The position numbers and the translations under genes are program-made. Under the pieces are notes generated by a model. That model was not told the origin of the DNA, made no database searches, and was given only the letters and a program-made list of their open reading frames with translations. Shown here one piece after another: positions 1,780 to 20,627 of a stretch of DNA of 64,000 nucleotides (the stretch's first letter is position 1; each line of letters opens with the position of its first letter). The DNA comes from Escherichia coli (GTDB lineage: Bacteria > Pseudomonadota > Gammaproteobacteria > Enterobacterales > Enterobacteriaceae). The stretch lies in assembly GCF_001677475.2 (NCBI RefSeq), contig NZ_CP015229.1; one strand, given 5' to 3'.

Positions 1780-3279
1780 GTGACGCTCAATACTTCTCAG
1801 GTCAGTTACTATATGACTCAGCGTAAGAAAGGTATAACTCAGCATATCTCGGCCATGAAGGCTGGTATCTCAGTCCGTTCTGGTCGTCGGATCGAAAAAG
1901 GAGAGTGGGCAAAAAACAGTGTTCGGCACTGGCGCACACGCAAAGATCCTCTGGAAGCTGTGTGGGACAGCATGCTTGTTCCTCTGTTGAAAGAGAGGCC
2001 GGCTCTGACACCAACAACTCTACTGGAGATGCTACAGGATAAATATCCCGGCCAGTACCCCAACAGCCTTCGAAGAACAATGCAACGGCGGGTTCGCGAA
2101 TGGAAACTACAGTATGGTACAGAGCAGGAGGTCATGTTCCGCCAGCAACATCAGCCCGGCCTGCGAGGCCTGTCGGACTTTACTGAACTGAAAGGTGTAG
2201 TTGTCACCATCGCCGGTAAGTTGTTGGCGCATAAGTTGTATCACTTCCGTCTGGAATGGAGCCACTGGAGCTGGATGCGGGTTGTTCTGGGTGGTGAGAG
2301 CTTCTCTGCTCTGGCTGAAGGCCTGCAGGAAGCCCTCGGACAACTGGGCGGAGTGCCGGTAGAACATAAAACGGACAGCCTGAGGGCAGCATGGAAACAA
2401 CAGGGCGAAGATGGACGCCGCGAGCTGACTGAGCGTTATGCTACTCTCTGTCAGCACTACGGAATGCAGGGCGTACACAATAATGCCGGTCGGGGCCACG
2501 AAAATGGCTCGGTTGAAAGTGCCCACGGACATCTGAAAAGGCGTATCTGTCAGGCGCTGATACTGCGGGGCAGTAACGACTTCAGCACCATAGAAGAATA
2601 TCAGGCCTTCATCACTCAGCAGGTTATGCGGCACAACCGTAACAATCAGGATCTGGTCAAGGAAGAACGTCTTCATCTGAAACCGCTGCCGCTTCGTCGC
2701 AGTGCTGACTATGATGAGCTGACTGTGAGGGTTAGTCGCAGCAGTACCATCAATGTGAAGCACGTCGTCTACAGCGTACCTTCCCGGCTTGTAGGTCAAC
2801 TGTTACGGGTCAGGTTATGGGACGATCGTCTGAGCTGTTACGTTGGCAGCAGCGAGGTCATGAGCTGCCCTCGCGTCAGACCAGAAAAAGGGAAGACGCG
2901 GGCCCGTCGTATCGACTTCCGACATGTGATCGACAGTCTGGCAAAAAAGCCCGGTGCGTTCTGCCATGCAACGCTGAGAAATGACATCCTGCCGGACGAT
3001 GAATGGCGGAGGCTGTGGCGTCGCTTATGTAATCATCTGGAGCCCGATATGGCAGGAAGGCTGATGGTACATGCCCTGAAACTGGCTGCAGGATACGACG
3101 ATATCTCAGTCGTGGCAAAAGGTATGGAGCAGATGCTGAATACCCCGGGAAACGTGGATCTGCACCGGCTGATGCGCTTCCTGGGTATAAAAGAAAAGGC
3201 GTTGCCGGTAGTCAATGTGATACAGCATAACCTGAGCAGTTATGAGCAACTACTGCGTGGCAAGGGAGGTTCGCAGTGA
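1780..3279 (+). CDS. istA: IS21-family transposase IstA
   Basis: 499-aa ORF directly upstream of and overlapping the IstB-like gene; GTG start at 1780, alternative ATG at 1813. Confidence 0.75.
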   Translation: MTLNTSQVSYYMTQRKKGITQHISAMKAGISVRSGRRIEKGEWAKNSVRHWRTRKDPLEAVWDSMLVPLLKERPALTPTTLLEMLQDKYPGQYPNSLRRTMQRRVREWKLQYGTEQEVMFRQQHQPGLRGLSDFTELKGVVVTIAGKLLAHKLYHFRLEWSHWSWMRVVLGGESFSALAEGLQEALGQLGGVPVEHKTDSLRAAWKQQGEDGRRELTERYATLCQHYGMQGVHNNAGRGHENGSVESAHGHLKRRICQALILRGSNDFSTIEEYQAFITQQVMRHNRNNQDLVKEERLHLKPLPLRRSADYDELTVRVSRSSTINVKHVVYSVPSRLVGQLLRVRLWDDRLSCYVGSSEVMSCPRVRPEKGKTRARRIDFRHVIDSLAKKPGAFCHATLRNDILPDDEWRRLWRRLCNHLEPDMAGRLMVHALKLAAGYDDISVVAKGMEQMLNTPGNVDLHRLMRFLGIKEKALPVVNVIQHNLSSYEQLLRGKGGSQ

Positions 3280-4031
3280 GCAATATCCATCACCTTGAAC
3301 ATAGCCTGCGTAAACTACGCCTGACACGAGTTGGAGCTGAATGGCACGCTCTGGAAAAACGAGCGCTGGCAGAAGGCTGGACACCATCGCGCTATCTTCT
3401 GACGCTATGCAATGAAGAACTCCTGTGGCGCGAGAGTGAAAAACTGCGTCGTTATAAAAAGGAGGCCCGGTTGCCAGTTGCCAAAACGCTGAGCGAATAC
3501 GACTTCAGTCAGGTGCCGGAACTGAATGGAGCTCAGTTCCGGCAACTCTGTGAAACGACAGACTGGGTTGATGCAGGAGAAAACGTTCTGCTGTTCGGAG
3601 CCAGCGGGTTGGGGAAAAGCCATCTGGCGGCAGCGATCGTGGATGGCGTAGTAGGTCAGGGCTACCGGGCCCGGTTCTACAGCGCAGGAGAGCTGTTGCA
3701 GGAACTACGTAAAGCCAGAGCTCAGTTGAAACTGAATGAGCTGCTACTGAAACTGGATCGCTACCGGGTGATAGTGGTGGATGATCTTGGCTATGTCAAA
3801 CGCGATAGTGCCGAAACGGGTGTGCTGTTCGAGTTAATAGCGCATCGCTATGAACGTGGGAGCCTGGTGATAACCAGTAACCATCCGTTCAGCATGTGGG
3901 GCAGCATCTTCGTGGATGAGACTATGGCGGTGGCTGCGGCAGACAGGCTGATCCATCACGGATATATGTTCGAACTGAAAGGGGAAAGCTACAGGAAAAA
4001 GACAGCGAAGGCAGTAACAAGCGCGACTTGA
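3276..4031 (+). CDS. istB: IS21-family helper ATPase IstB
   Basis: 251-aa ORF with P-loop GASGLGKSHLAAA and a DnaA/IstB-like AAA+ layout (Walker B-like VIVVDDLGY). Confidence 0.85.
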   Translation: MSNIHHLEHSLRKLRLTRVGAEWHALEKRALAEGWTPSRYLLTLCNEELLWRESEKLRRYKKEARLPVAKTLSEYDFSQVPELNGAQFRQLCETTDWVDAGENVLLFGASGLGKSHLAAAIVDGVVGQGYRARFYSAGELLQELRKARAQLKLNELLLKLDRYRVIVVDDLGYVKRDSAETGVLFELIAHRYERGSLVITSNHPFSMWGSIFVDETMAVAAADRLIHHGYMFELKGESYRKKTAKAVTSAT

Positions 4032-13190: not shown

Positions 13191-16100
13191 ATGGGTAAAG
13201 GCAGCAGTAAGGGGCATACTCCGCGCGAAGCGAAGGACAACCTGAAGTCCACGCAGTTGCTGAGTGTGATCGATGCCATCAGCGAAGGGCCGGTTGAAGG
13301 TCCGGTGGATGGATTAAAAAGCGTGCTGCTGAACAGTACGCCAGTGCTGGACAGTGAGGGGAATACCAATATCTCCGGCGTCACGGTGGTGTTCCGGGCC
13401 GGTGAGCAGGAGCAGACACCGCCGGAGGGATTTGAATCCTCTGGCTCCGAGACGGTGCTGGGTACGGAAGTGAAATACGACACGCCGATCACCCGGACCA
13501 TCACGTCGGCAAACATTGACCGACTGCGTTTTACCTTCGGCGTGCAGGCACTGGTGGAAACCACCTCAAAGGGGGACAGGAATCCGTCGGAAGTCCGCCT
13601 GCTGGTTCAGATCCAGCGTAATGGTGGCTGGGTGACGGAAAAAGACATCACCATTAAGGGCAAAACCACCTCGCAGTATCTGGCCTCGGTGGTGGTGGGT
13701 AACCTGCCGCCGCGCCCGTTCAATATACGGATGCGCAGGATGACGCCGGACAGCACCACAGACCAGCTGCAGAACAAAACGCTCTGGTCGTCATACACCG
13801 AAATCATCGATGTGAAACAGTGCTACCCGAACACGGCACTGGTCGGCGTACAGGTGGATTCGGAGCAGTTCGGCAGCCAGCAGGTGAGCCGTAATTATCA
13901 TCTGCGCGGGCGCATTCTGCAGGTGCCGTCGAACTATAACCCGCAGACGCGGCAATACAGCGGTATCTGGGACGGAACGTTTAAACCGGCATACAGCAAC
14001 AACATGGCCTGGTGTCTGTGGGATATGCTGACCCATCCGCGCTACGGCATGGGGAAACGTCTTGGTGCGGCGGATGTGGACAAATGGGCGCTGTATGTCA
14101 TCGGCCAGCATTGCGATCAGTCGGTGCCGGACGGTTTTGGCGGCACGGAGCCGCGCATCACCTGTAATGCGTACCTGACCACACAGCGCAAGGCGTGGGA
14201 TGTGCTCAGTGATTTCTGCTCTGCGATGCGCTGTATGCCGGTATGGAACGGGCAGACGCTGACGTTCGTGCAGGACCGACCGTCGGATAAGGTGTGGACC
14301 TATAACCGCAGTAATGTGGTGATGCCGGATGATGGTGCGCCGTTCCGCTACAGCTTCAGCGCCCTGAAGGACCGCCATAATGCCGTTGAGGTGAACTGGA
14401 TTGACCCGAATAACGGCTGGGAGACGGCGACAGAGCTTGTGGAGGACACGCAGGCCATTCTCCGTTACGGTCGTAACGTCACGAAGATGGATGCCTTTGG
14501 CTGTACCAGTCGGGGGCAGGCACACCGCGCCGGGCTGTGGCTGATTAAAACAGAACTGCTGGAAACGCAGACCGTGGATTTCAGCGTCGGCGCAGAAGGG
14601 CTTCGCCATGTGCCGGGCGATGTTATTGAAATCTGCGATGATGACTATGCCGGTATCAGCACCGGCGGGCGCGTGCTGGCGGTGAACAGCCAGACCCGGA
14701 CGCTGACGCTCGACCGTGAAATCACGCTGCCATCCGCCGGCACCACGCTGATAAGCCTGGTTGACGGAAGTGGAAATCCGGTCAGCGTGGAGGTTCAGTC
14801 CGTCACCGATGGCGTGAAGGTAAAAGTGAGCCGTGTTCCTGACGGCGTTGCAGAATACAGTGTGTGGGGGCTGAAGTTGCCGACGCTGCGCCAGCGCCTG
14901 TTCCGCTGTGTGAGTATCCGTGAGAATGACGACGGCACGTATGCCATCACCGCCGTGCAGCATGTACCGGAAAAAGAGGCCATCGTGGATAACGGGGCGC
15001 ACTTTGACGGCGACCAGAGCGGCACGGTGAATGGTGTCACGCCGCCCGCGGTGCAGCACCTGACCGCCGAAGTCACCGCAGACAGCGGGGAATATCAGGT
15101 GCTGGCGCGCTGGGACACGCCGAAGGTGGTCAAGGGTGTGAGCTTCCTGCTTCGCCTGACCGTGGCAGCGGATGACGGCAGTGAGCGGCTGGTCAGCACA
15201 GCCCGGACGACGGAAACCACATACCGCTTCAGGCAGCTGGCGCCAGGAAATTACAGTCTGACGGTCCGGGCGGTAAATGCCCGGGGACAGCAGGGGGATC
15301 CGGCGTCGGTATCGTTCCGGATTAACGCCCCGGCAGCGCCTGCCACAATTGAACTGATACCGGGGTATTTTCAGATAACGGCGGTCCCGCGTCTTGCGGT
15401 GTATGACCCGACGGTGCAGTTTGAGTTCTGGTTCTCGGAAAATCAGATTACGGATATCCGGCAGGTTGAAACCACAGCCCGCTATCTCGGTACGGCGATG
15501 TACTGGACAGCTGCCAGTATTAATATCAGGCCGGGCCATGATTATTACTTTTATATCCGCAGTGTGAACATCGTCGGTAAATCAGCGTTTGTGGAAGCTG
15601 TTGGCCAGCCGGTTAATGATGCTGAGGTGTATCTCAATTTTTTTGAAGGGAAAATAAACAGCACCCTGCTGGGACAGGAGCTGAACGATCGTATTAATGC
15701 CTCGGCATTGCGCAGTGAAGTTGAGCAACTGGAGGATGAGATCAATCAGCAGATAGAGAGTGATATTGCTGAAGTGACCCAAAAAATCGGGGAGACAGAA
15801 AACAGCCTCACACAGCTGGTTGCGAAAAAAAATGATGAGCTGTCACTGGGTATATCACAGGTGAGCCAGAGAGTGGATAACGTCAGCAGCGAACTCACGC
15901 AGACGGTCAGTCAGAGTAATGAGGAGAATGCACGCCAGATAGCGCAGGTTCGCCAGTATGTGGATCAAAAAAGCAGTGAAATCATGACGACAACGGACCA
16001 AAAGCTGGGAGATCAGGAGGCCACCATCCAGCAGATACAAAAGGTTCAGACGGACACCAGTAATAACCTGAACAGTATGTGGGCCGTGAAACTGCAGCAG

Positions 16101-16445
16101 ATGCAGGATGGTCGCCTTTATATTGCGGGTATCGGTGCCGGTATTGAGAATACCCCTGACGGTATGCAGAGCCAGGTGCTGCTGGCGGCAGACAGGATTG
16201 CGATGGTTAATCCTGCGAATGGTAATACAACACCCTTGTTTGTGGCTCAGGGGGATCAGCTGTTCCTGAATGAGGTTTTCATGTCCAGGGCGACGATTGA
16301 TTTTGCGGAAATTACGGGGGTTCTTCGTTCTTCGGGATTTGAAGTCAGGGGACAGGGAGGCTGGGATCTGAGCCGGGAACTGAACTGCTTCAGGGTCGAT
16401 GATGAAAACAATGTCATTCGGGTGAGAATGGGCAGGTTACTCTGA
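13191..16445 (+). CDS. Host specificity / tail tip protein J (central tail fibre)
   Basis: 1084-aa ORF after K and I. Conserved gpJ-like N-terminal two-thirds, fibronectin-like middle region, and a divergent coiled-coil C-terminus. Confidence 0.9.
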
Positions 16446-16454
16446 GGAGCGAAT

Positions 16455-16826
16455 ATGTCATTGCAATATGGCTGGCAAATCATGGATGCAACGGGCAGGG
16501 TGGTTACGGATACGTCTGCAATTATGTGCAGACGTTTATTCTCATATCATGTTCCGATCATTGAAGCACTGGCATCAAATATCCCGTGGTCAGTGACATT
16601 TGGTGTCAGTTTTAACAATGGAACCCCATTCACACATTGTGTGACACGGAAGGGGATTACGGTGCCTTCCGGCAGGGTATGGTATCCGGTGGCACCGGAT
16701 ATTATCATCAACGGTAACAGCGTCACCTTAACCTATACAGCAAGACATGTTTCATATCCTGATGATTTGGGGTATCTCCTGGCTGTTGGCGGTGTGGATG
16801 TTCATTGTGGGGTTTACCACCGATGA
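16455..16826 (+). CDS. Hypothetical phage protein (unknown; paralogous to the N-terminus of the next gene)
   Basis: 123-aa ORF with RBS GAGGAG upstream. Visibly AT-richer than J. Confidence 0.5.
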   Translation: MSLQYGWQIMDATGRVVTDTSAIMCRRLFSYHVPIIEALASNIPWSVTFGVSFNNGTPFTHCVTRKGITVPSGRVWYPVAPDIIINGNSVTLTYTARHVSYPDDLGYLLAVGGVDVHCGVYHR

Positions 16827-17614
16827 GCGGTTATGGCATTCAGCTAATTAATGACTATGGACTGACAGTGGCAGATGCGGAAGATGTGAATTATGTTTTG
16901 CGAAGTGCCGGTCAGTTCAGTAATGGTCATTTTATCTCCGGCGGGAACACGACGAGCGCAATCAGTCTGATAACAACCGGGATGAACAGTCCTTTATTGT
17001 TTCTGAAGATGAATACAAATAATTCGAGGCTGACACAAAAAGCCGGGGTCAATAAGCTGTCCCCTGATTTTGTTAATCCCGGAACATATATATCGGTGAC
17101 AAGTATAGACGTGTTTAAATGGTGGAATATAAATATTGGCACGGTTCAGTATTATATTTTTGACAAGTGGATACCGCCGGAGCGAAGTTCATACGGTATG
17201 CAACTGTTTGATGGTTCAGGCGGAATTATATTTGATTCCGGGTGGTATTTTCTGAAATTACGGGATGTGAAATGGCTTGAACCGCAATATCCAAACCATT
17301 CAGGGCATGAAAGCGGTAGTAACTGGAGTAATGTCGGGCATGTTTCCGATGATGTCAATAACACAGCATTATCAATGCCTCTGGGCAGGGGCTGGATTGA
17401 GTCATCCTTACAGGGTGGATATTACTATAATGAGTGTTGTCATCTTGACGGTAACGGTAATCTCTATATATCCATAATACCGACAGGTGTTTATCTCGAT
17501 ATATCACCGACAGGCGGCTGGGTTGGCTCAATGAAAACCCAGGTCATGGTTGCGGATGTATCCGGCTTACCGACGAATTATAACCCTGTGGAGATAAGGA
17601 ACGTTAACGGTTAA
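16823..17614 (+). CDS. Hypothetical phage protein (unknown; internally repeated YG-Q-L motif)
   Basis: ORF 16805..17614; the probable start ATG 16823 overlaps the upstream stop (ATGA). Followed by a strong intrinsic terminator. Confidence 0.5.
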   Translation: MSGYGIQLINDYGLTVADAEDVNYVLRSAGQFSNGHFISGGNTTSAISLITTGMNSPLLFLKMNTNNSRLTQKAGVNKLSPDFVNPGTYISVTSIDVFKWWNINIGTVQYYIFDKWIPPERSSYGMQLFDGSGGIIFDSGWYFLKLRDVKWLEPQYPNHSGHESGSNWSNVGHVSDDVNNTALSMPLGRGWIESSLQGGYYYNECCHLDGNGNLYISIIPTGVYLDISPTGGWVGSMKTQVMVADVSGLPTNYNPVEIRNVNG

Positions 17615-17694: not shown

Positions 17695-17704
17695 TGGGGT
17701 GAAT

Positions 17705-19801
17705 ATGGCAGTAAAGATTTCAGGTGTCCTGAAAGACGGAGCGGGTGAGCCTGTCGTAAACTGTGCGATTGAATTGCGTGCCAGAAGAACCAGTCCGACA
17801 GTTGTGGTTAATATTGTGGCAACCTGTCTTACGGGAAGTGATGGCGGGTATACTATTAATGCTGAGCCGGGATTTTATGATGTATTTTTGTCCCGCACAG
17901 GGCATCCTCCTGTAAAGGCGGGGGAAATTTATGTTGCACCGACAGATGAGCCGGATACGCTGAATGCTTTTCTGGATGCACCAAAGGAGGGTGATTTACG
18001 CCCTGAGGTAATGAAGCGTTTTGAGGAAATGGTAAATACCGTTGTTCGCTTGTCTGAGCAGGTGGTCAGTGACAGGGAGAGAGCAGAAACAGCTGCTGAT
18101 GATGCAATTAATGCAGCAACATCTGCGGCGGGTAGTAAGGATGAGGCAGAAGAGCTAAAAAATCAGACACAGCAGAGCGCCGAAGCTGCAGCCGGAAACG
18201 CACAGCAGACGGCACAGGATGTGACGACAACCGCAACGGCCCGTGATGATGCGGAACGTTTTGCGAATGAGGCTGAAAACAGCGCACAGTCATCAGGCAC
18301 AGCGCGGGACGAATCAGTCGATGCCGCCGAACGCGCCCGCCTTTATCATAATGCCGCATCAGCAGCAGCGACCAGTTCAGAACTGTCGGCAAATGCGGCG
18401 CTGGGGCACAAAAACAGTGCCGCCGAATACGCCCGACAGGCTAAAGCCAGCCAGGATGCAGGTGCAGACAATGCGCAGGAAGCGAAACAGTTCAGGGATG
18501 AGGCACAGCAGATTGTTGATGACCTGAATGCAACAAATGCCAGCACGACAGAAAAAGGTCTGGTGCAACTCTGTAGTGATACGGACAACGACAGCGAGGA
18601 ACTGGCTGCCACGCCAAAGGCTGTCAGACTCGTCATGGACGAGACGAAAACAAAAGCGCCACTGGACAGCCCGGCTTTCACCGGCATCCCAACCACCCCA
18701 ACCCCACCGGATGATGCCGCCGGTCTGGAAGCAGCGAACGCAGCGTTTGTGCGCAAACTGCTTGCTGCGCTGGTTGGCTCATCGCCGGAAGTTCTGGACA
18801 CCCTGAACGAACTGGCAGCGGCGCTGGGCAATGACCCGGAGTTTGCGACCTCAATCATGAATGCGCTGGCAGGCAAACAACCGCTTAATGACGTCTTAAC
18901 GGCAATCAGCGCACTGACGCAACGGTCAGATAATCTTCTGTACTTCAATACGGACGGGAATGCCTCACTGTCTCTGCTGTCAGAGAAGGGCCGCGCATTA
19001 CTGGCGCATGACACAGCTGAAGCCATGCGCACGGAGCTTGAGCTGAAAGCAGCTGCGACGATGGAACCCCAGAGTGATATTCGCGACCGCACATCCGGCA
19101 GGCTGGCGCTGTCCGGGATGTATGGGTTTGGACAGGCATTCACCAGCGCCGACGCTCTGTCATTTAACGGACAGGCTGATTTCGTTGAGTGGTTGAAGAA
19201 AGTCACGCCGGGGCGGTATGCGGTCAGTATTACAGACTCCTCGCAACTGCTTACCGGTACCACGCAATTTAACGGCATTATTGATGTGATGTGGTCACCG
19301 TACGCCAACAGTGAATCTGATACAGTCCGCAAATTTAAAACCCTGATGTGTTACAACCAGTATTATCAGGGTGAACACTGTATTCACTATATGCAGTACC
19401 GGTACAACGACAGTGATAACAGCTGGAACATGTCATCGCGGGTAGTTGTATACGACGGAGATTCTCTCGCTTATTTATTATCGCGGTTATCCGGTAATGG
19501 TCCGTTCTCATATTACCAATACCCGGCCGTCGGTGTGCCGATTATGGCGGTATATCAGGGAGAAAGTTTTGGTGAAAATGCTTCTCTGGGACTCGGTGAT
19601 ACTGTGCCGGGTTCCCGTCTTGGTCCTCTGGCCATGAGTGCACCGGTTAGTGATACAGGGACATACGCATCCTCACCGCAGGTTGTGATTGGCGGTGCCG
19701 GTGAATACAACTTCCCCGGTCGTTACATGGCGCTTTCGGGCTTAGGTAACAATTATGGTACTCAGCGTGGCTTTATCGGTCTTTTTGTACGCATTGAGTA
19801 A
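17705..19801 (+). CDS. Side tail fibre protein (lambda Stf-like N-terminus)
   Basis: Starts MAVKISGVLKDGAGEPV, matching the conserved Stf N-terminal domain. Has a coiled-coil middle and a divergent C-terminal receptor-binding region. Confidence 0.85.
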   Translation: MAVKISGVLKDGAGEPVVNCAIELRARRTSPTVVVNIVATCLTGSDGGYTINAEPGFYDVFLSRTGHPPVKAGEIYVAPTDEPDTLNAFLDAPKEGDLRPEVMKRFEEMVNTVVRLSEQVVSDRERAETAADDAINAATSAAGSKDEAEELKNQTQQSAEAAAGNAQQTAQDVTTTATARDDAERFANEAENSAQSSGTARDESVDAAERARLYHNAASAAATSSELSANAALGHKNSAAEYARQAKASQDAGADNAQEAKQFRDEAQQIVDDLNATNASTTEKGLVQLCSDTDNDSEELAATPKAVRLVMDETKTKAPLDSPAFTGIPTTPTPPDDAAGLEAANAAFVRKLLAALVGSSPEVLDTLNELAAALGNDPEFATSIMNALAGKQPLNDVLTAISALTQRSDNLLYFNTDGNASLSLLSEKGRALLAHDTAEAMRTELELKAAATMEPQSDIRDRTSGRLALSGMYGFGQAFTSADALSFNGQADFVEWLKKVTPGRYAVSITDSSQLLTGTTQFNGIIDVMWSPYANSESDTVRKFKTLMCYNQYYQGEHCIHYMQYRYNDSDNSWNMSSRVVVYDGDSLAYLLSRLSGNGPFSYYQYPAVGVPIMAVYQGESFGENASLGLGDTVPGSRLGPLAMSAPVSDTGTYASSPQVVIGGAGEYNFPGRYMALSGLGNNYGTQRGFIGLFVRIE

Positions 19802-20400
19802 TGAGGAAATCAGGCATGAAAATCAGAGCGGTGAAAGGCATCAGAAACGCACATTATCTTGAAAATGGTGCGATTGACTGCGAGGTGTTATTTGAAGGTG
19901 AAACGGAGTTCGCCATGTATACCGCCATACAGGATGATACAGCCCCGACAGGCCAGCACATCTGGCAGGAGCTGCAAAGCGGGAAATGGGGCGAAATCGT
20001 CCCGTTCACCGTCACGCCTGAACTTATTGCAGCGGCAAAGGATGCCAAAAGGCGGGAGATTGAGGCATGGCGCGACAGTCAGGAAAACGTTGAGTTTATT
20101 TTCACGTTTGATGGTCGTCGTTTTGATGGTGGAAAAACCTCGCAGTCACGCCTTGCGCCCGTGGTTGCAACAGCACAGGCCGGACTGCTTCCGGAGGGTT
20201 TTTTCTGGACTGATGCGGATAATAACAACGTCGTACTGACCAGGGAGAAACTTATTGCGCTGAACGATGCCATGATGGTGGCCATGGTGGCGGAGGGCTT
20301 TAAAATCCACGAACGTCAGCGGGAGATGAAAGAGGAGCTGAGTAGCCTCGAGGATTTACACTCAATCAGGAAGTTGCTCGTTAACTCAGAAAAAATTTGA
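19801..20400 (+). CDS. Putative tail fibre assembly protein (atypical Tfa-like)
   Basis: 199-aa ORF overlapping the stf stop and last gene before the tRNA. Assigned by position; it does not closely resemble canonical lambda Tfa. Confidence 0.45.
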   Translation: MRKSGMKIRAVKGIRNAHYLENGAIDCEVLFEGETEFAMYTAIQDDTAPTGQHIWQELQSGKWGEIVPFTVTPELIAAAKDAKRREIEAWRDSQENVEFIFTFDGRRFDGGKTSQSRLAPVVATAQAGLLPEGFFWTDADNNNVVLTREKLIALNDAMMVAMVAEGFKIHERQREMKEELSSLEDLHSIRKLLVNSEKI

Positions 20401-20508
20401 GATACCAAAGACATCAAAGAGGTGCTGGCGGGAAAATATCGCAGATATTAAAAACTGAAAATATACCAATTGGTATACCAAGTTTATACCAAGAACCCAA
20501 AAAGCAAA

Positions 20509-20530
20509 GGGGCTACCATTTGGTAACCCC
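20509..20530 (-). terminator. Hairpin plus T-run downstream of serT (probable tRNA terminator)
   Basis: On the minus strand GGGGTTACCA-AA-TGGTAGCCCC is followed by TTTGCTTTTT. Confidence 0.5.
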
Positions 20531-20539
20531 TTGATTATT

Positions 20540-20627
20540 TGGCGGAAGCGCAGAGATTCGAACTCTGGAACCCTTTCGGGTCGCCGGTTTTCAAGACCGG
20601 TGCCTTCAACCGCTCGGCCACACTTCC
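20540..20627 (-). tRNA. serT: tRNA-Ser (anticodon UGA)
   Basis: Reverse complement reads GGAAGTGTGGCCGAGCGGTTGAAGGCACCGGTCTTGAAAACCGGCGACCCGAAAGGGTTCCAGAGTTCGAATCTCTGCGCTTCCGCCA: 88 nt with long variable arm and encoded CCA. Confidence 0.95.

Follow-up and report, generated by a model that had tools for sequence, protein, structure and literature searches.

A DUF4376-class gene behind stf probably supplies the assembly chaperone of a distinct tail fibre tip in an Escherichia coli lambdoid prophage

The last gene of a lambdoid prophage in Escherichia coli (contig NZ_CP015229.1; "the window" denotes the whole 64,000-nucleotide stretch that was analysed) probably encodes an intermolecular chaperone of the DUF4376 class for tail-fibre assembly, translated from 19816-20400 right after the side tail fibre protein Stf and from the same late transcript. 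This reading draws on DUF4376 and PHROG membership, experimentally validated homologues, gene order, natural hybrids, co-variation between the fibre tip and the chaperone N-terminal domain, a remnant at the same serT site in another strain, and an AlphaFold2 (AF2) model. A sequence-only reading of the region had proposed a distinct fibre tip with its own noncanonical chaperone, and the family assignment, validated homologues, synteny and co-variation all support that proposal. The features under discussion are as follows.

17699..19801 (+): stf, encoding the 700-aa side tail fibre from a GTG start (PHROG 2636 'tail fiber protein', E 2e-180)
19079..19513 (+): Stf residues 461-605, variable Tyr-rich distal subdomain, candidate receptor-binding part (composition, AF2)
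19514..19798 (+): conserved module at the end of Stf (residues 606-700), putative chaperone docking/nucleation site (fibre C termini of 73 pairs)
19803..19809 (+): Shine-Dalgarno-like GAGGAAA, with GAGGA 8 nt upstream of ATG 19816 (sequence and junction comparison of homologous loci)
19816..20400 (+): gene for tail fibre assembly, DUF4376 class, 194 aa and a stop codon
19816..20013 (+): chaperone N-terminal domain (residues 1-66), three beta strands and a helix, fibre-specific module (AF2 pLDDT 94-98, co-variation)
20014..20397 (+): DUF4376 domain in the C-terminal part of the chaperone (residues 67-194), conserved, exchangeable module (Pfam, AF2, hhalign)
20498..20627 (-): host DNA resumes, prophage/host junction at about 20498 (BLASTN to K-12)
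20507-20532 (-): serT terminator hairpin (terminator scan)
20540-20627 (-): tRNA-Ser(TGA) serT (ARAGORN)

The gene is genuine: it matched PHROG 1141 over its full length (E 9e-82) and scored 69.4 bits against a Pfam DUF4376 cutoff of 25. A 100% identical copy is present in an IMG/VR contig (L009). The mechanical open reading frame spans 19801-20400 (+; 199 aa), its upstream ATG at 19801 adding MRKSG to the product, and it is in this frame that the Tfa-like overlap with the stf stop had been seen, as a 1-nt TAATG overlap. The second ATG, at 19816, lies 14 nt past the stf stop (19799-19801). It is most likely the true start, judging from the GAGGA Shine-Dalgarno sequence, from the PHROG 1141 profile and all homologues, which begin at this codon, and from the 97% identical copy in E. 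coli N96, where the junction reads TAATAA and leaves the second ATG as the sole usable start. The overlap thus holds for the mechanical frame but gives way to a 14-nt spacing for the likely gene. Tight coupling of the two genes holds throughout: across the family, the fibre/chaperone junctions of this N-domain class overlap by at most 4 nt or leave a gap of at most 20 nt.

Homology to K-12, an E. coli free of the prophage, begins at 20498 (BLASTN, yccA-serT-hyaA), which leaves roughly 97 nt between the stop codon and the prophage/host junction; beyond this junction lie the tRNA-Ser gene serT and then hyaA. The ORF list and ARAGORN confirmed that this ORF is the last of the prophage before tRNA-Ser(TGA), as had been claimed.

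Next, the family of the protein was examined. The Pfam match is to PF14301 (DUF4376; E 4e-19, profile positions 1-96 of 106, nucleotides 20032-20346), a family with 1,551 clusters at 90% identity (E<=1e-3) and 359 representatives at 50% identity, most of which align only over residues 65 to 185 or so. Besides this above-threshold match, the protein shares with the family homology to V22 gp27, a fibre-adjacent gene and a two-part architecture. No match to Caudo_TAP (PF02413) was found in a Pfam scan at E<=1, in which the positive controls lambda Tfa, Mu U, phiP27 L55 and Rac-SA53 tail2 scored between E 1e-18 and 1e-43. BLASTP against lambda Tfa returned only 12-residue chance matches, hhalign of the family alignment against the Caudo_TAP alignment gave a probability of 0.8%, the C-terminal Caudo_TAP motif (…W..Y…L..VD…EWP..PE) is absent, and the N-terminal domain resembles no canonical Tfa-type N-domain. 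The suspicion that this is not a canonical lambda Tfa is therefore upheld, and the profile search against tail fibre assembly families that had been suggested as a check places the protein in DUF4376 instead. By profile comparison, then, the protein belongs to a known, little-studied family and not to the classic lambda Tfa family. A published statement that TfaMu contains DUF4376 (PMC7882524) was set aside, as our Pfam scan identified Mu U as Caudo_TAP only. Searches of the PDB by sequence and by profile with the chaperone found nothing. The protein is currently labelled 'DUF4376 domain-containing protein' by NCBI and 'tail fiber protein' in PHROGs.

Members of the DUF4376 family have been studied in a few phages (V22 gp27 and A5 gp9 by Gonzalez-Serrano et al. 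2020, 2023). Alteromonas phage V22 gp27 is needed for a functional receptor-binding protein, gp26, and separates from it on size exclusion chromatography (SEC) (PMC7289586); a DUF4376 gene downstream of the H-fibre of the Campylobacter CJIE1 prophage is required for a functional fibre (PMC7882524); and, as a point against the chaperone reading, the DUF4376 member A5 gp9 is dispensable for fibre function (PMC10579305). V22 gp27 itself scores E 3e-21 against Pfam DUF4376 and aligned with our family alignment over 112 columns (hhalign probability 96.8%, E 2e-10). The two proteins are alike in size and layout (195 aa with DUF4376 at 87-187 versus 194 aa with DUF4376 at 73-177), both genes lie 12 to 14 nt downstream of the fibre gene, and in the V22 and A5 chaperones, too, a beta region at the N terminus precedes a helical body that carries hairpins (PMC10579305). 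They differ in that the N-terminal domains do not align and there is no BLAST-level similarity; in that gp26 is unrelated to Stf and ends in …ITVNF, without the GLFVRIE module; and in that the phages are myo- and podoviruses with a marine gammaproteobacterium as host, not a lambdoid prophage.

The AF2 model of the chaperone (pLDDT 96.5, pTM 0.82) has the expected two-domain layout, and its DUF4376 domain is predicted to consist of a long helix, a hairpin, a helix, a second hairpin and a long helix. Twelve residues of this domain (W85, R86, E90, W103, D104, R112, W131, N136, I164, Q168, R169, and K172) are near-invariant in the family. Fold searches with the model returned generic helical hairpins only (prefoldin and designed bundles), none of them significant, besides chromo-like matches to the small N-terminal domain, also none significant; we do not take the prefoldin match for homology. 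A single-chain AF2 fusion of Stf(461-700)-(GGGGS)6-chaperone, run with a paired alignment, reached a pTM of 0.47; neither an interface nor the relative placement of the two parts was predicted with confidence, which weighs against the chaperone reading.

Stf begins with a prophage tail-fibre N-terminal domain (residues 3-136, PF08400, E 1e-40) and contains a Phage_fiber_2 repeat (residues 282-321, PF03406, E 2e-13). Its C terminus had been described as divergent and Cys/Tyr-rich. Tyrosine makes up 7.9% of the last 240 residues and 15% of residues 541-620, compared with 1 to 2% elsewhere, but the only cysteines of this region are C551 and C561, so that the description stands for tyrosine and not for cysteine. 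The C terminus is unlike that of lambda Stf, yet it is a common tip: homologues fall into 66 clusters, 54-89% identical, from E. coli and Salmonella prophages. The AF2 model of the distal subdomain is beta-rich (pLDDT about 70 to 85). The tip had no Pfam match, and Foldseek of its model against the PDB found nothing with E<0.1, so 'distinct' is a fair description. Following the variable subdomain, a terminal module of about 95 residues is common to every fibre paired with this type of chaperone N-domain; its consensus, from a MAFFT alignment of 32 distinct tips, is …P.vG…A.Y…G.tvPGSRL…G.Y…P…PG.Y.ALSG…GLFVRIE.

Uncharacterised homologues from E. coli phages are paired with fibres that end in a similar way. 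PhiP27 L57, Rac-SA53 'tail4', P-Eib ORF-191 and Av-05 gp77 are 32-55% identical to it over their full length and have the same N-domain class, and their fibres carry the terminal motif …ALSG…LF(V/M/Q)RI(A/V) as in Stf. Upstream of the terminal module these fibres are unlike Stf, and the C-domains of their chaperones belong to other DUF4376 sub-types (e.g., …ARxxxxWGDADN… versus …LPEGFFWTDADN… here).

For the co-variation analysis, similarities were expressed as BLAST bit scores normalised to self-scores, with several fibre segment lengths; percent identity from global alignments was discarded because it gave noisy, partly opposite results, as was single linkage, which merged all sequences. Among 63 nonredundant pairs, the chaperone N-domain co-varied with the 70 C-terminal residues of the fibre (Mantel rho 0.70, partial 0.67; 0.83 within class I), although part of this could be plain linkage, since the N-domain coding region adjoins the 3' end of the fibre gene. 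The C-domain gave a rho of 0.31 (partial 0.17) against the same 70 residues, and no tip cluster was common to different N-domain classes in the 63 pairs. With fibre segments of 150 to 250 aa, the C-domain correlated equally well or better, which we read as shared phage background.

Recombination breakpoints in relatives lie somewhat beyond the N-terminal domain, near chaperone residues 85 to 90 (about nt 20085); in many E. coli genomes the match to the gene is confined to nt 1-270, and one relative (P0007) is a mosaic. A hybrid from locus L040 (P0144) is 47% identical to lambda Tfa over residues 1-117 of both (E 4e-39) and continues as DUF4376; the tip of its fibre shares 53% identity with lambda Stf across 200 aa, and both end in …NIAFNYIVRLA. 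Other hybrids, of 223 aa, join an N-domain like that of Mu U/U' (40-53% identity, E 1e-22 to 1e-27) to DUF4376. By BLAST, the fibres paired with these Mu-U-like N-domains matched Mu S in a shaft motif only and not in their tips, so the argument for tip/N-domain matching across families rests on the lambda-like case. Taken together, the sequence comparisons indicate that the N-terminal 66 to 90 or so residues of the chaperone vary in step with the final 70 residues of the fibre and that the DUF4376 part is exchangeable with the C-terminal part of Caudo_TAP.

The order of genes is conserved. A fibre gene followed by a DUF4376 gene occurs in lambdoid, Rac-like, Stx, P2-like, phiP27 and Vequintavirinae phages; the DUF4376 gene directly follows the fibre gene in phiP27, Rac-SA53, GER2, P-EibA, Av-05, P2-like prophages and more than 60 IMG/VR loci. 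The co-oriented arrangement recurs in 73 related loci, which were gathered by single-protein queries, those with P0125 and Av-05 giving one locus each. PhiP27 and Rac-SA53 each have two fibre genes, one with a Caudo_TAP gene and the other with a DUF4376 gene, showing that the two families fill the same functional slot. The serT site of E. coli 10035776-3 also holds a prophage; it carries a Mu-like fibre and a Caudo_TAP Tfa, and behind these lie 43 codons left over from a DUF4376 gene, the scar of a cassette replacement.

Lambda Tfa has the same gene position and the same size (194 aa) as the chaperone, but it, Mu U (TfaMu) and P2 G, all PF02413 proteins, show no sequence or profile similarity to it. 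Caudo_TAP proteins, as summarised from North et al. 2019 in later papers (PMC9608196, PMC7882524), have a variable fibre-binding N-domain and a conserved C-terminal assembly domain. The chaperone appears to share this modular logic (a fibre-specific N-domain, a generic C-domain and an adjacent gene) as a functional analogy only and not by membership. We tentatively suggest that DUF4376 may be a second, nonhomologous 'universal' C-module interchangeable with the Caudo_TAP C-domain; that the unit by which enterobacterial prophages exchange host range may be a cassette comprising the last 70 to 100 or so residues of the fibre and the first 66 to 90 or so of the chaperone, recombining between two conserved anchors, the fibre shaft and the DUF4376 core; and that Stf may represent an uncharacterised class of receptor-binding tip whose conserved module of about 95 residues would dock this N-domain class.

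A chaperone may also be part of the fibre itself. In Peptidase_S74 systems, it is the fibre's own C-terminal domain, with an autoproteolytic Ser-Lys dyad. Stf had no Pfam match to Peptidase_S74, the chaperone here is a separate gene, and the DUF4376 alignment has no invariant Ser; the pair does not fall into the intramolecular class. Peptidase_S74 domains (T5 pb1, K1F endosialidase) and cyanophage Pam3 gp25 illustrate the same proposed principle, in which trimerisation is nucleated at the fibre tip by a helical trimer of C-terminal domains bearing beta 'tentacles' (PMC10579305, PMC9608196), and the folds of the V22 and A5 chaperones have been claimed to be similar to the intramolecular chaperone domains of T5 pb1 and the K1F tailspike.

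These observations suggest a working mechanism. The N-terminal 66 to 90 or so residues of the chaperone would recognise the 95-residue terminal module of Stf (…PGSRL…ALSG…GLFVRIE) through putative contact surfaces, and the C-terminal DUF4376 domain, with its helical hairpin and two beta hairpins, would supply a generic function. By analogy to TfaMu, Pam3 gp25 and AlphaFold-Multimer models of the V22 and A5 chaperones, the domain probably self-associates as a trimer, which would align three Stf C termini in register so that trimerisation of the fibre could start at the tip; the chaperone would then leave or stay loosely attached as a cap.

Whether the protein remains on the particle bears on a different reading, in which it is a structural component of the fibre tip, a cap or adhesin that aids receptor recognition or transiently masks the tip. 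The gp38 protein of T2 and S16 remains on the fibre tip as an adhesin. PHROG 1141 and several GenBank records name homologues 'tail fiber protein', the variable N-domain is specific to the type of tip, TfaMu remains fibre bound, and the authors of the A5 study suggest that DUF4376 chaperones act as a transient cap (PMC10579305). We nevertheless consider a structural role unlikely, given the full separation of V22 gp27 from the functional fibre on SEC (PMC7289586). The part under strongest conservation, which holds the 12 near-invariant residues, is common to fibres with unrelated tips, which fits a generic assembly role and not receptor binding. In addition, Pfam (E<=1) gave DUF4376 only and no adhesin family, and the best PHROG matches are DUF4376-type. 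The protein does not resemble gp38-type tip adhesins (T2, T6, S16): its conserved part is the C-terminal half, and no gp38-like glycine-rich or hypervariable segments were noted in the family alignment.

The gene could instead be an intact-looking relic of a defective prophage whose function has been lost. The close relative of the gene in E. coli N96 lies in a prophage with lom disrupted by an IS66 element, strain 10035776-3 has a DUF4376 pseudogene remnant at this site, and the left half of the prophage is outside the window. That the present copy is such a relic is improbable, as the full-length ORF keeps every near-invariant family residue, upstream of it stf and the J, I and K-like genes are intact within the window, and the same genome has two paralogues at 93-94%, each of which follows an intact fibre. 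That it is a moron, lysogenic-conversion or defence gene unrelated to the fibre, like the morons lom, bor and eib found at prophage ends, is very improbable: the gene is terminal and close to attR, its P-Eib homologue directly precedes the eib moron, and there is a weak PADLOC match (E 0.004, 13.8 bits), but that match spans 45 residues and is far below significance, the gene also follows the fibre gene in the strictly lytic phage Av-05, it lies mid-operon in P2-like tail operons at the position of P2 gene G, and both its tight coupling to the fibre stop and its homology to proven chaperones argue against the idea.

For the biology of the window, the chaperone gene is one of the ordinary late genes of a lambdoid prophage. 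Its wider relevance lies in the fact that tail-fibre chaperones decide the folding of engineered or swapped receptor-binding proteins and are therefore a practical bottleneck in the retargeting of phages, pyocins and tailocins. For many fibres of E. coli and Salmonella prophages, the partner is of the DUF4376 type and not of the lambda Tfa type; when such pairs are designed or annotated, the N-terminal part of the partner must match the last 100 or so residues of the fibre, and the DUF4376 part can be exchanged.

The ORF that directly follows the side tail fiber gene stf had been judged unlike canonical lambda Tfa in the sequence-only reading, and database searches bore this out. The protein had no match at an E value of ≤1 to Caudo_TAP (Pfam PF02413), whereas lambda Tfa, Mu U, phiP27 L55, and Rac-SA53 tail2 were all strong Caudo_TAP matches in the same Pfam scan. 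BLASTP against lambda Tfa found nothing, and profile-profile comparison of the protein's family with the Tfa type gave a probability of 0.8%. The profile searches which that reading had proposed assigned it, not to Caudo_TAP, but to Pfam DUF4376 (69 bits; cutoff, 25) and, over its full length, to PHROG 1141 (E = 9e-82). This large family forms 1,551 clusters when grouped at 90% identity and is covered by 359 representatives at 50%; NCBI labels its members "DUF4376 domain-containing protein." One candidate, P0154 (1,027 aa; 18 short matched stretches), was repetitive or low in complexity, matched many unrelated Pfam families, and was excluded as an artifact.

A near-full-length close copy was present in only 19 of 5,426 complete E. 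coli genomes. The identical sequence occurs in an IMG/VR prophage contig (L009; UViG 2721755653 contig 000010), whose source genome has two more prophage contigs (L010, 000008; L012, 000004) with 93 to 94% DUF4376 paralogues. Both paralogues lie behind an stf bearing the terminal module described below; poly-lysogenic (STEC-like) E. coli typically carry such a set. That the gene is a dead relic is less likely than that it serves the fiber.

From 20498 onward the window is E. coli chromosome, with 97% identity to K-12 yccA-serT-hyaA, and its hya genes share 98.3% identity with those of thousands of E. coli genomes. The region upstream of 20498 is the tail end of a lambdoid prophage. The features are, in order:

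Upstream part of the prophage tail end, K-like and I-like genes
13191-16445, J
16455-16826, plus strand, small ORF (123 aa)
16805-17614, plus strand, small ORF (about 263 to 269 aa)
17699-19801, stf (700 aa; Pfam phage_tail_N and Phage_fiber_2)
19801-20400, plus strand, the ORF under study
20540-20627, minus strand, tRNA-Ser(TGA) (serT)

Because of this gene order and the junction at 20498, the ORF is the last prophage gene, its stop lying ∼97 nt short of host DNA. The junction is ∼44 nt past the serT 3' end, in or beside the serT terminator hairpin (20507-20532, minus strand); viewed from the window side it is not inside the tRNA gene itself, and the window does not include the other att copy. 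The two ORFs between J and stf occupy the slot of lom in lambda, had no match in Pfam or PADLOC, and belong to PHROG families without assigned function. The larger has 75% identity to "hypothetical" proteins of the lytic siphophages IME253, TR3, Rao1, and ZL19 and 50 to 54% identity to Klebsiella phage proteins. Together they may form a J-associated tip module.

The overlap with the stf stop, read earlier as Tfa-like, holds for the mechanical ORF, whose ATG shares one base with that stop (TAATG), but not for the likely start at 19816, which lies beyond it. This second ATG is taken as the start because it has a GAGGA Shine-Dalgarno sequence 8 nt upstream, because the PHROG profile and all homologues start there, and because E. 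coli N96, whose copy is 97% identical, has a TAATAA junction that permits only the second ATG (PGAP product, 194 aa). Fiber and partner genes are always tightly coupled in the family: at one extreme they overlap by 4 nt, and at the other they are 20 nt apart.

A fiber gene followed by a DUF4376 gene is also the order in phiP27, Rac-SA53, Stx phage GER2, and P-EibA, in the lytic myovirus Av-05, and in dozens of IMG/VR loci; in P2-like prophages the DUF4376 gene follows the fiber gene at the position of gene G. phiP27 and Rac-SA53 have two fiber genes each; in both phages, a Caudo_TAP gene comes after one of them and a DUF4376 gene after the other. At two further loci (L036 and L037; contigs DAQBVP010000080.1 and JAPMMQ010000067.1), the gene for P0140 (4001-4591; 196 aa, same N-domain class) lies 9 nt past the central tail fiber gene J, not stf, in the order J, P0140, hok/gef toxin gene, stf; this is either a J with its own DUF4376 partner or a rearrangement.

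Natural hybrids are the most telling comparative cases for function. In a 248-aa P2-like protein, residues 1 to 117 are 47% identical to lambda Tfa 1 to 117 (E = 4e-39) and are followed by DUF4376; the adjacent fiber tip has 53% identity to lambda Stf over 200 residues, with the same …NIAFNYIVRLA ending. In hybrids of 223 aa, DUF4376 is preceded by an N-domain resembling that of Mu U/U' (E = 1e-22 to 1e-27). DUF4376 therefore stands where canonical Tfa proteins have their conserved C-terminal part, in agreement with the modular model of TfaMu, in which a variable N-domain binds the fiber tip and a conserved C-domain mediates oligomerization and assembly (North et al. 2019, as described in PMC9608196 and PMC7882524). 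The TfaMu C-terminus has itself been called DUF4376 (PMC7882524), but a Pfam scan of Mu U (2976-3503 of locus L008) gave Caudo_TAP only; hybrids with a Mu-U-like N-domain may explain the confusion.

To compare partner and tip, 73 fiber/partner pairs were extracted (63 nonredundant), and BLAST scores normalized to self-scores were analyzed by Mantel tests (500 permutations). Against the last 70 fiber residues, the partner N-domain gave a rho of 0.70 (partial, 0.67; within this N-domain class, 0.83) and the DUF4376 C-domain a rho of 0.31 (partial, 0.17; within class, 0.41). No fiber-tip cluster was shared across N-domain classes. The C-domain correlation climbed with longer fiber segments, which we interpret as shared phage background flanking an exchanged cassette of tip plus N-domain; part of the N-domain signal could come from the physical linkage of neighboring sequences. 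In many E. coli genomes the match to the gene is limited to nt 1 to 270 (19816-20085; residues 1 to 90), at 84 to 89% identity. This limit, where the DUF4376 core starts (…EIEAWR…), marks a breakpoint at which recombination has recurred; the homologue P0007 is a mosaic of this type. At the same serT site in E. coli 10035776-3 (L105; NZ_CP159170.1, 2282-2995), a prophage has genes for a Mu-S-like fiber and a Caudo_TAP Tfa, after which lies a DUF4376 gene remnant: 43 codons of the 3' end, closely resembling the C-terminus of the window protein. The remnant looks like the trace of a replaced cassette. The partial matches and this remnant support the cassette idea. That the gene is a moron unrelated to the fiber is a less likely reading.

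The Stf C-terminus had been described as Cys/Tyr-rich. Tyrosine is abundant in the last 240 residues (7.9% overall; 15% in 541 to 620), but there are only two cysteines. This region had no Pfam domain, and its homologues were E. coli and Salmonella prophage fibers only. Many NCBI records for fragments of the tip (P0280 to P0326, homologues of 461 to 700) read "shikimate transporter, partial," evidently a propagated misannotation. A terminal module of ∼95 residues (…P.vG…A.Y…PGSRL…PG.Y.ALSG…GLF.RI[A/E]) is common to all fibers whose partner has this class of N-domain, and it is kept whether a 140-residue Tyr-rich globular part (window Stf) or collagen-like repeats (P-EibA) precede it.

The AlphaFold2 model of the chaperone (115-sequence alignment) was very confident (pLDDT, 96.5; pTM, 0.82), with these predicted elements:

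N-domain: strands 6-14, 20-26, and 33-37; helix 44-54
DUF4376 part: helix 68-90, hairpin 94-105, helix 107-121, hairpin 130-140, long helix 143-177

A co-fold was modeled as a single-chain Stf(461-700)-linker-chaperone fusion with a paired alignment. The tip was β-rich and moderately confident (pLDDT, about 70 to 88); in this crude, monomeric model of an expected 3:3 assembly, the relative placement of tip and chaperone was not confident (pTM, 0.47). For the tip in this fusion model, there was no PDB match at an E value of <0.1.

Among characterized relatives, V22 gp27 is needed for a receptor-binding-competent fiber gp26 and comes apart from it on gel filtration (PMC7289586). Its sequence has a Pfam DUF4376 domain (E = 3e-21) and aligned to the profile of the window protein's family (probability, 96.8%; 112 C-terminal columns); therefore, the window protein shares a domain family with a proven chaperone. 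A5 gp9 binds its fiber yet is dispensable; AlphaFold-Multimer models gave a 3:3 complex in which N-terminal chaperone strands extend the fiber-head sheet, and the A5 authors proposed a transient cap (PMC10579305). A Campylobacter prophage H-fiber requires the DUF4376 gene downstream of it (PMC7882524). By analogy with relatives, where these steps have been shown in part, the N-domain would dock on the conserved Stf terminal module, the DUF4376 domain would self-associate to hold three chains in register, and the chaperone would afterwards be released or loosely retained. A permanent structural cap or adhesin is a less likely reading. DUF4376 membership, gene order, covariation of N-domain and tip, and the lack of a Pfam or PDB match for the tip thus support the proposal of a noncanonical tail fiber assembly gene serving a distinct Stf tip. 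The protein adds a new E. coli member to the known DUF4376 chaperone class but does not represent a new kind of protein.
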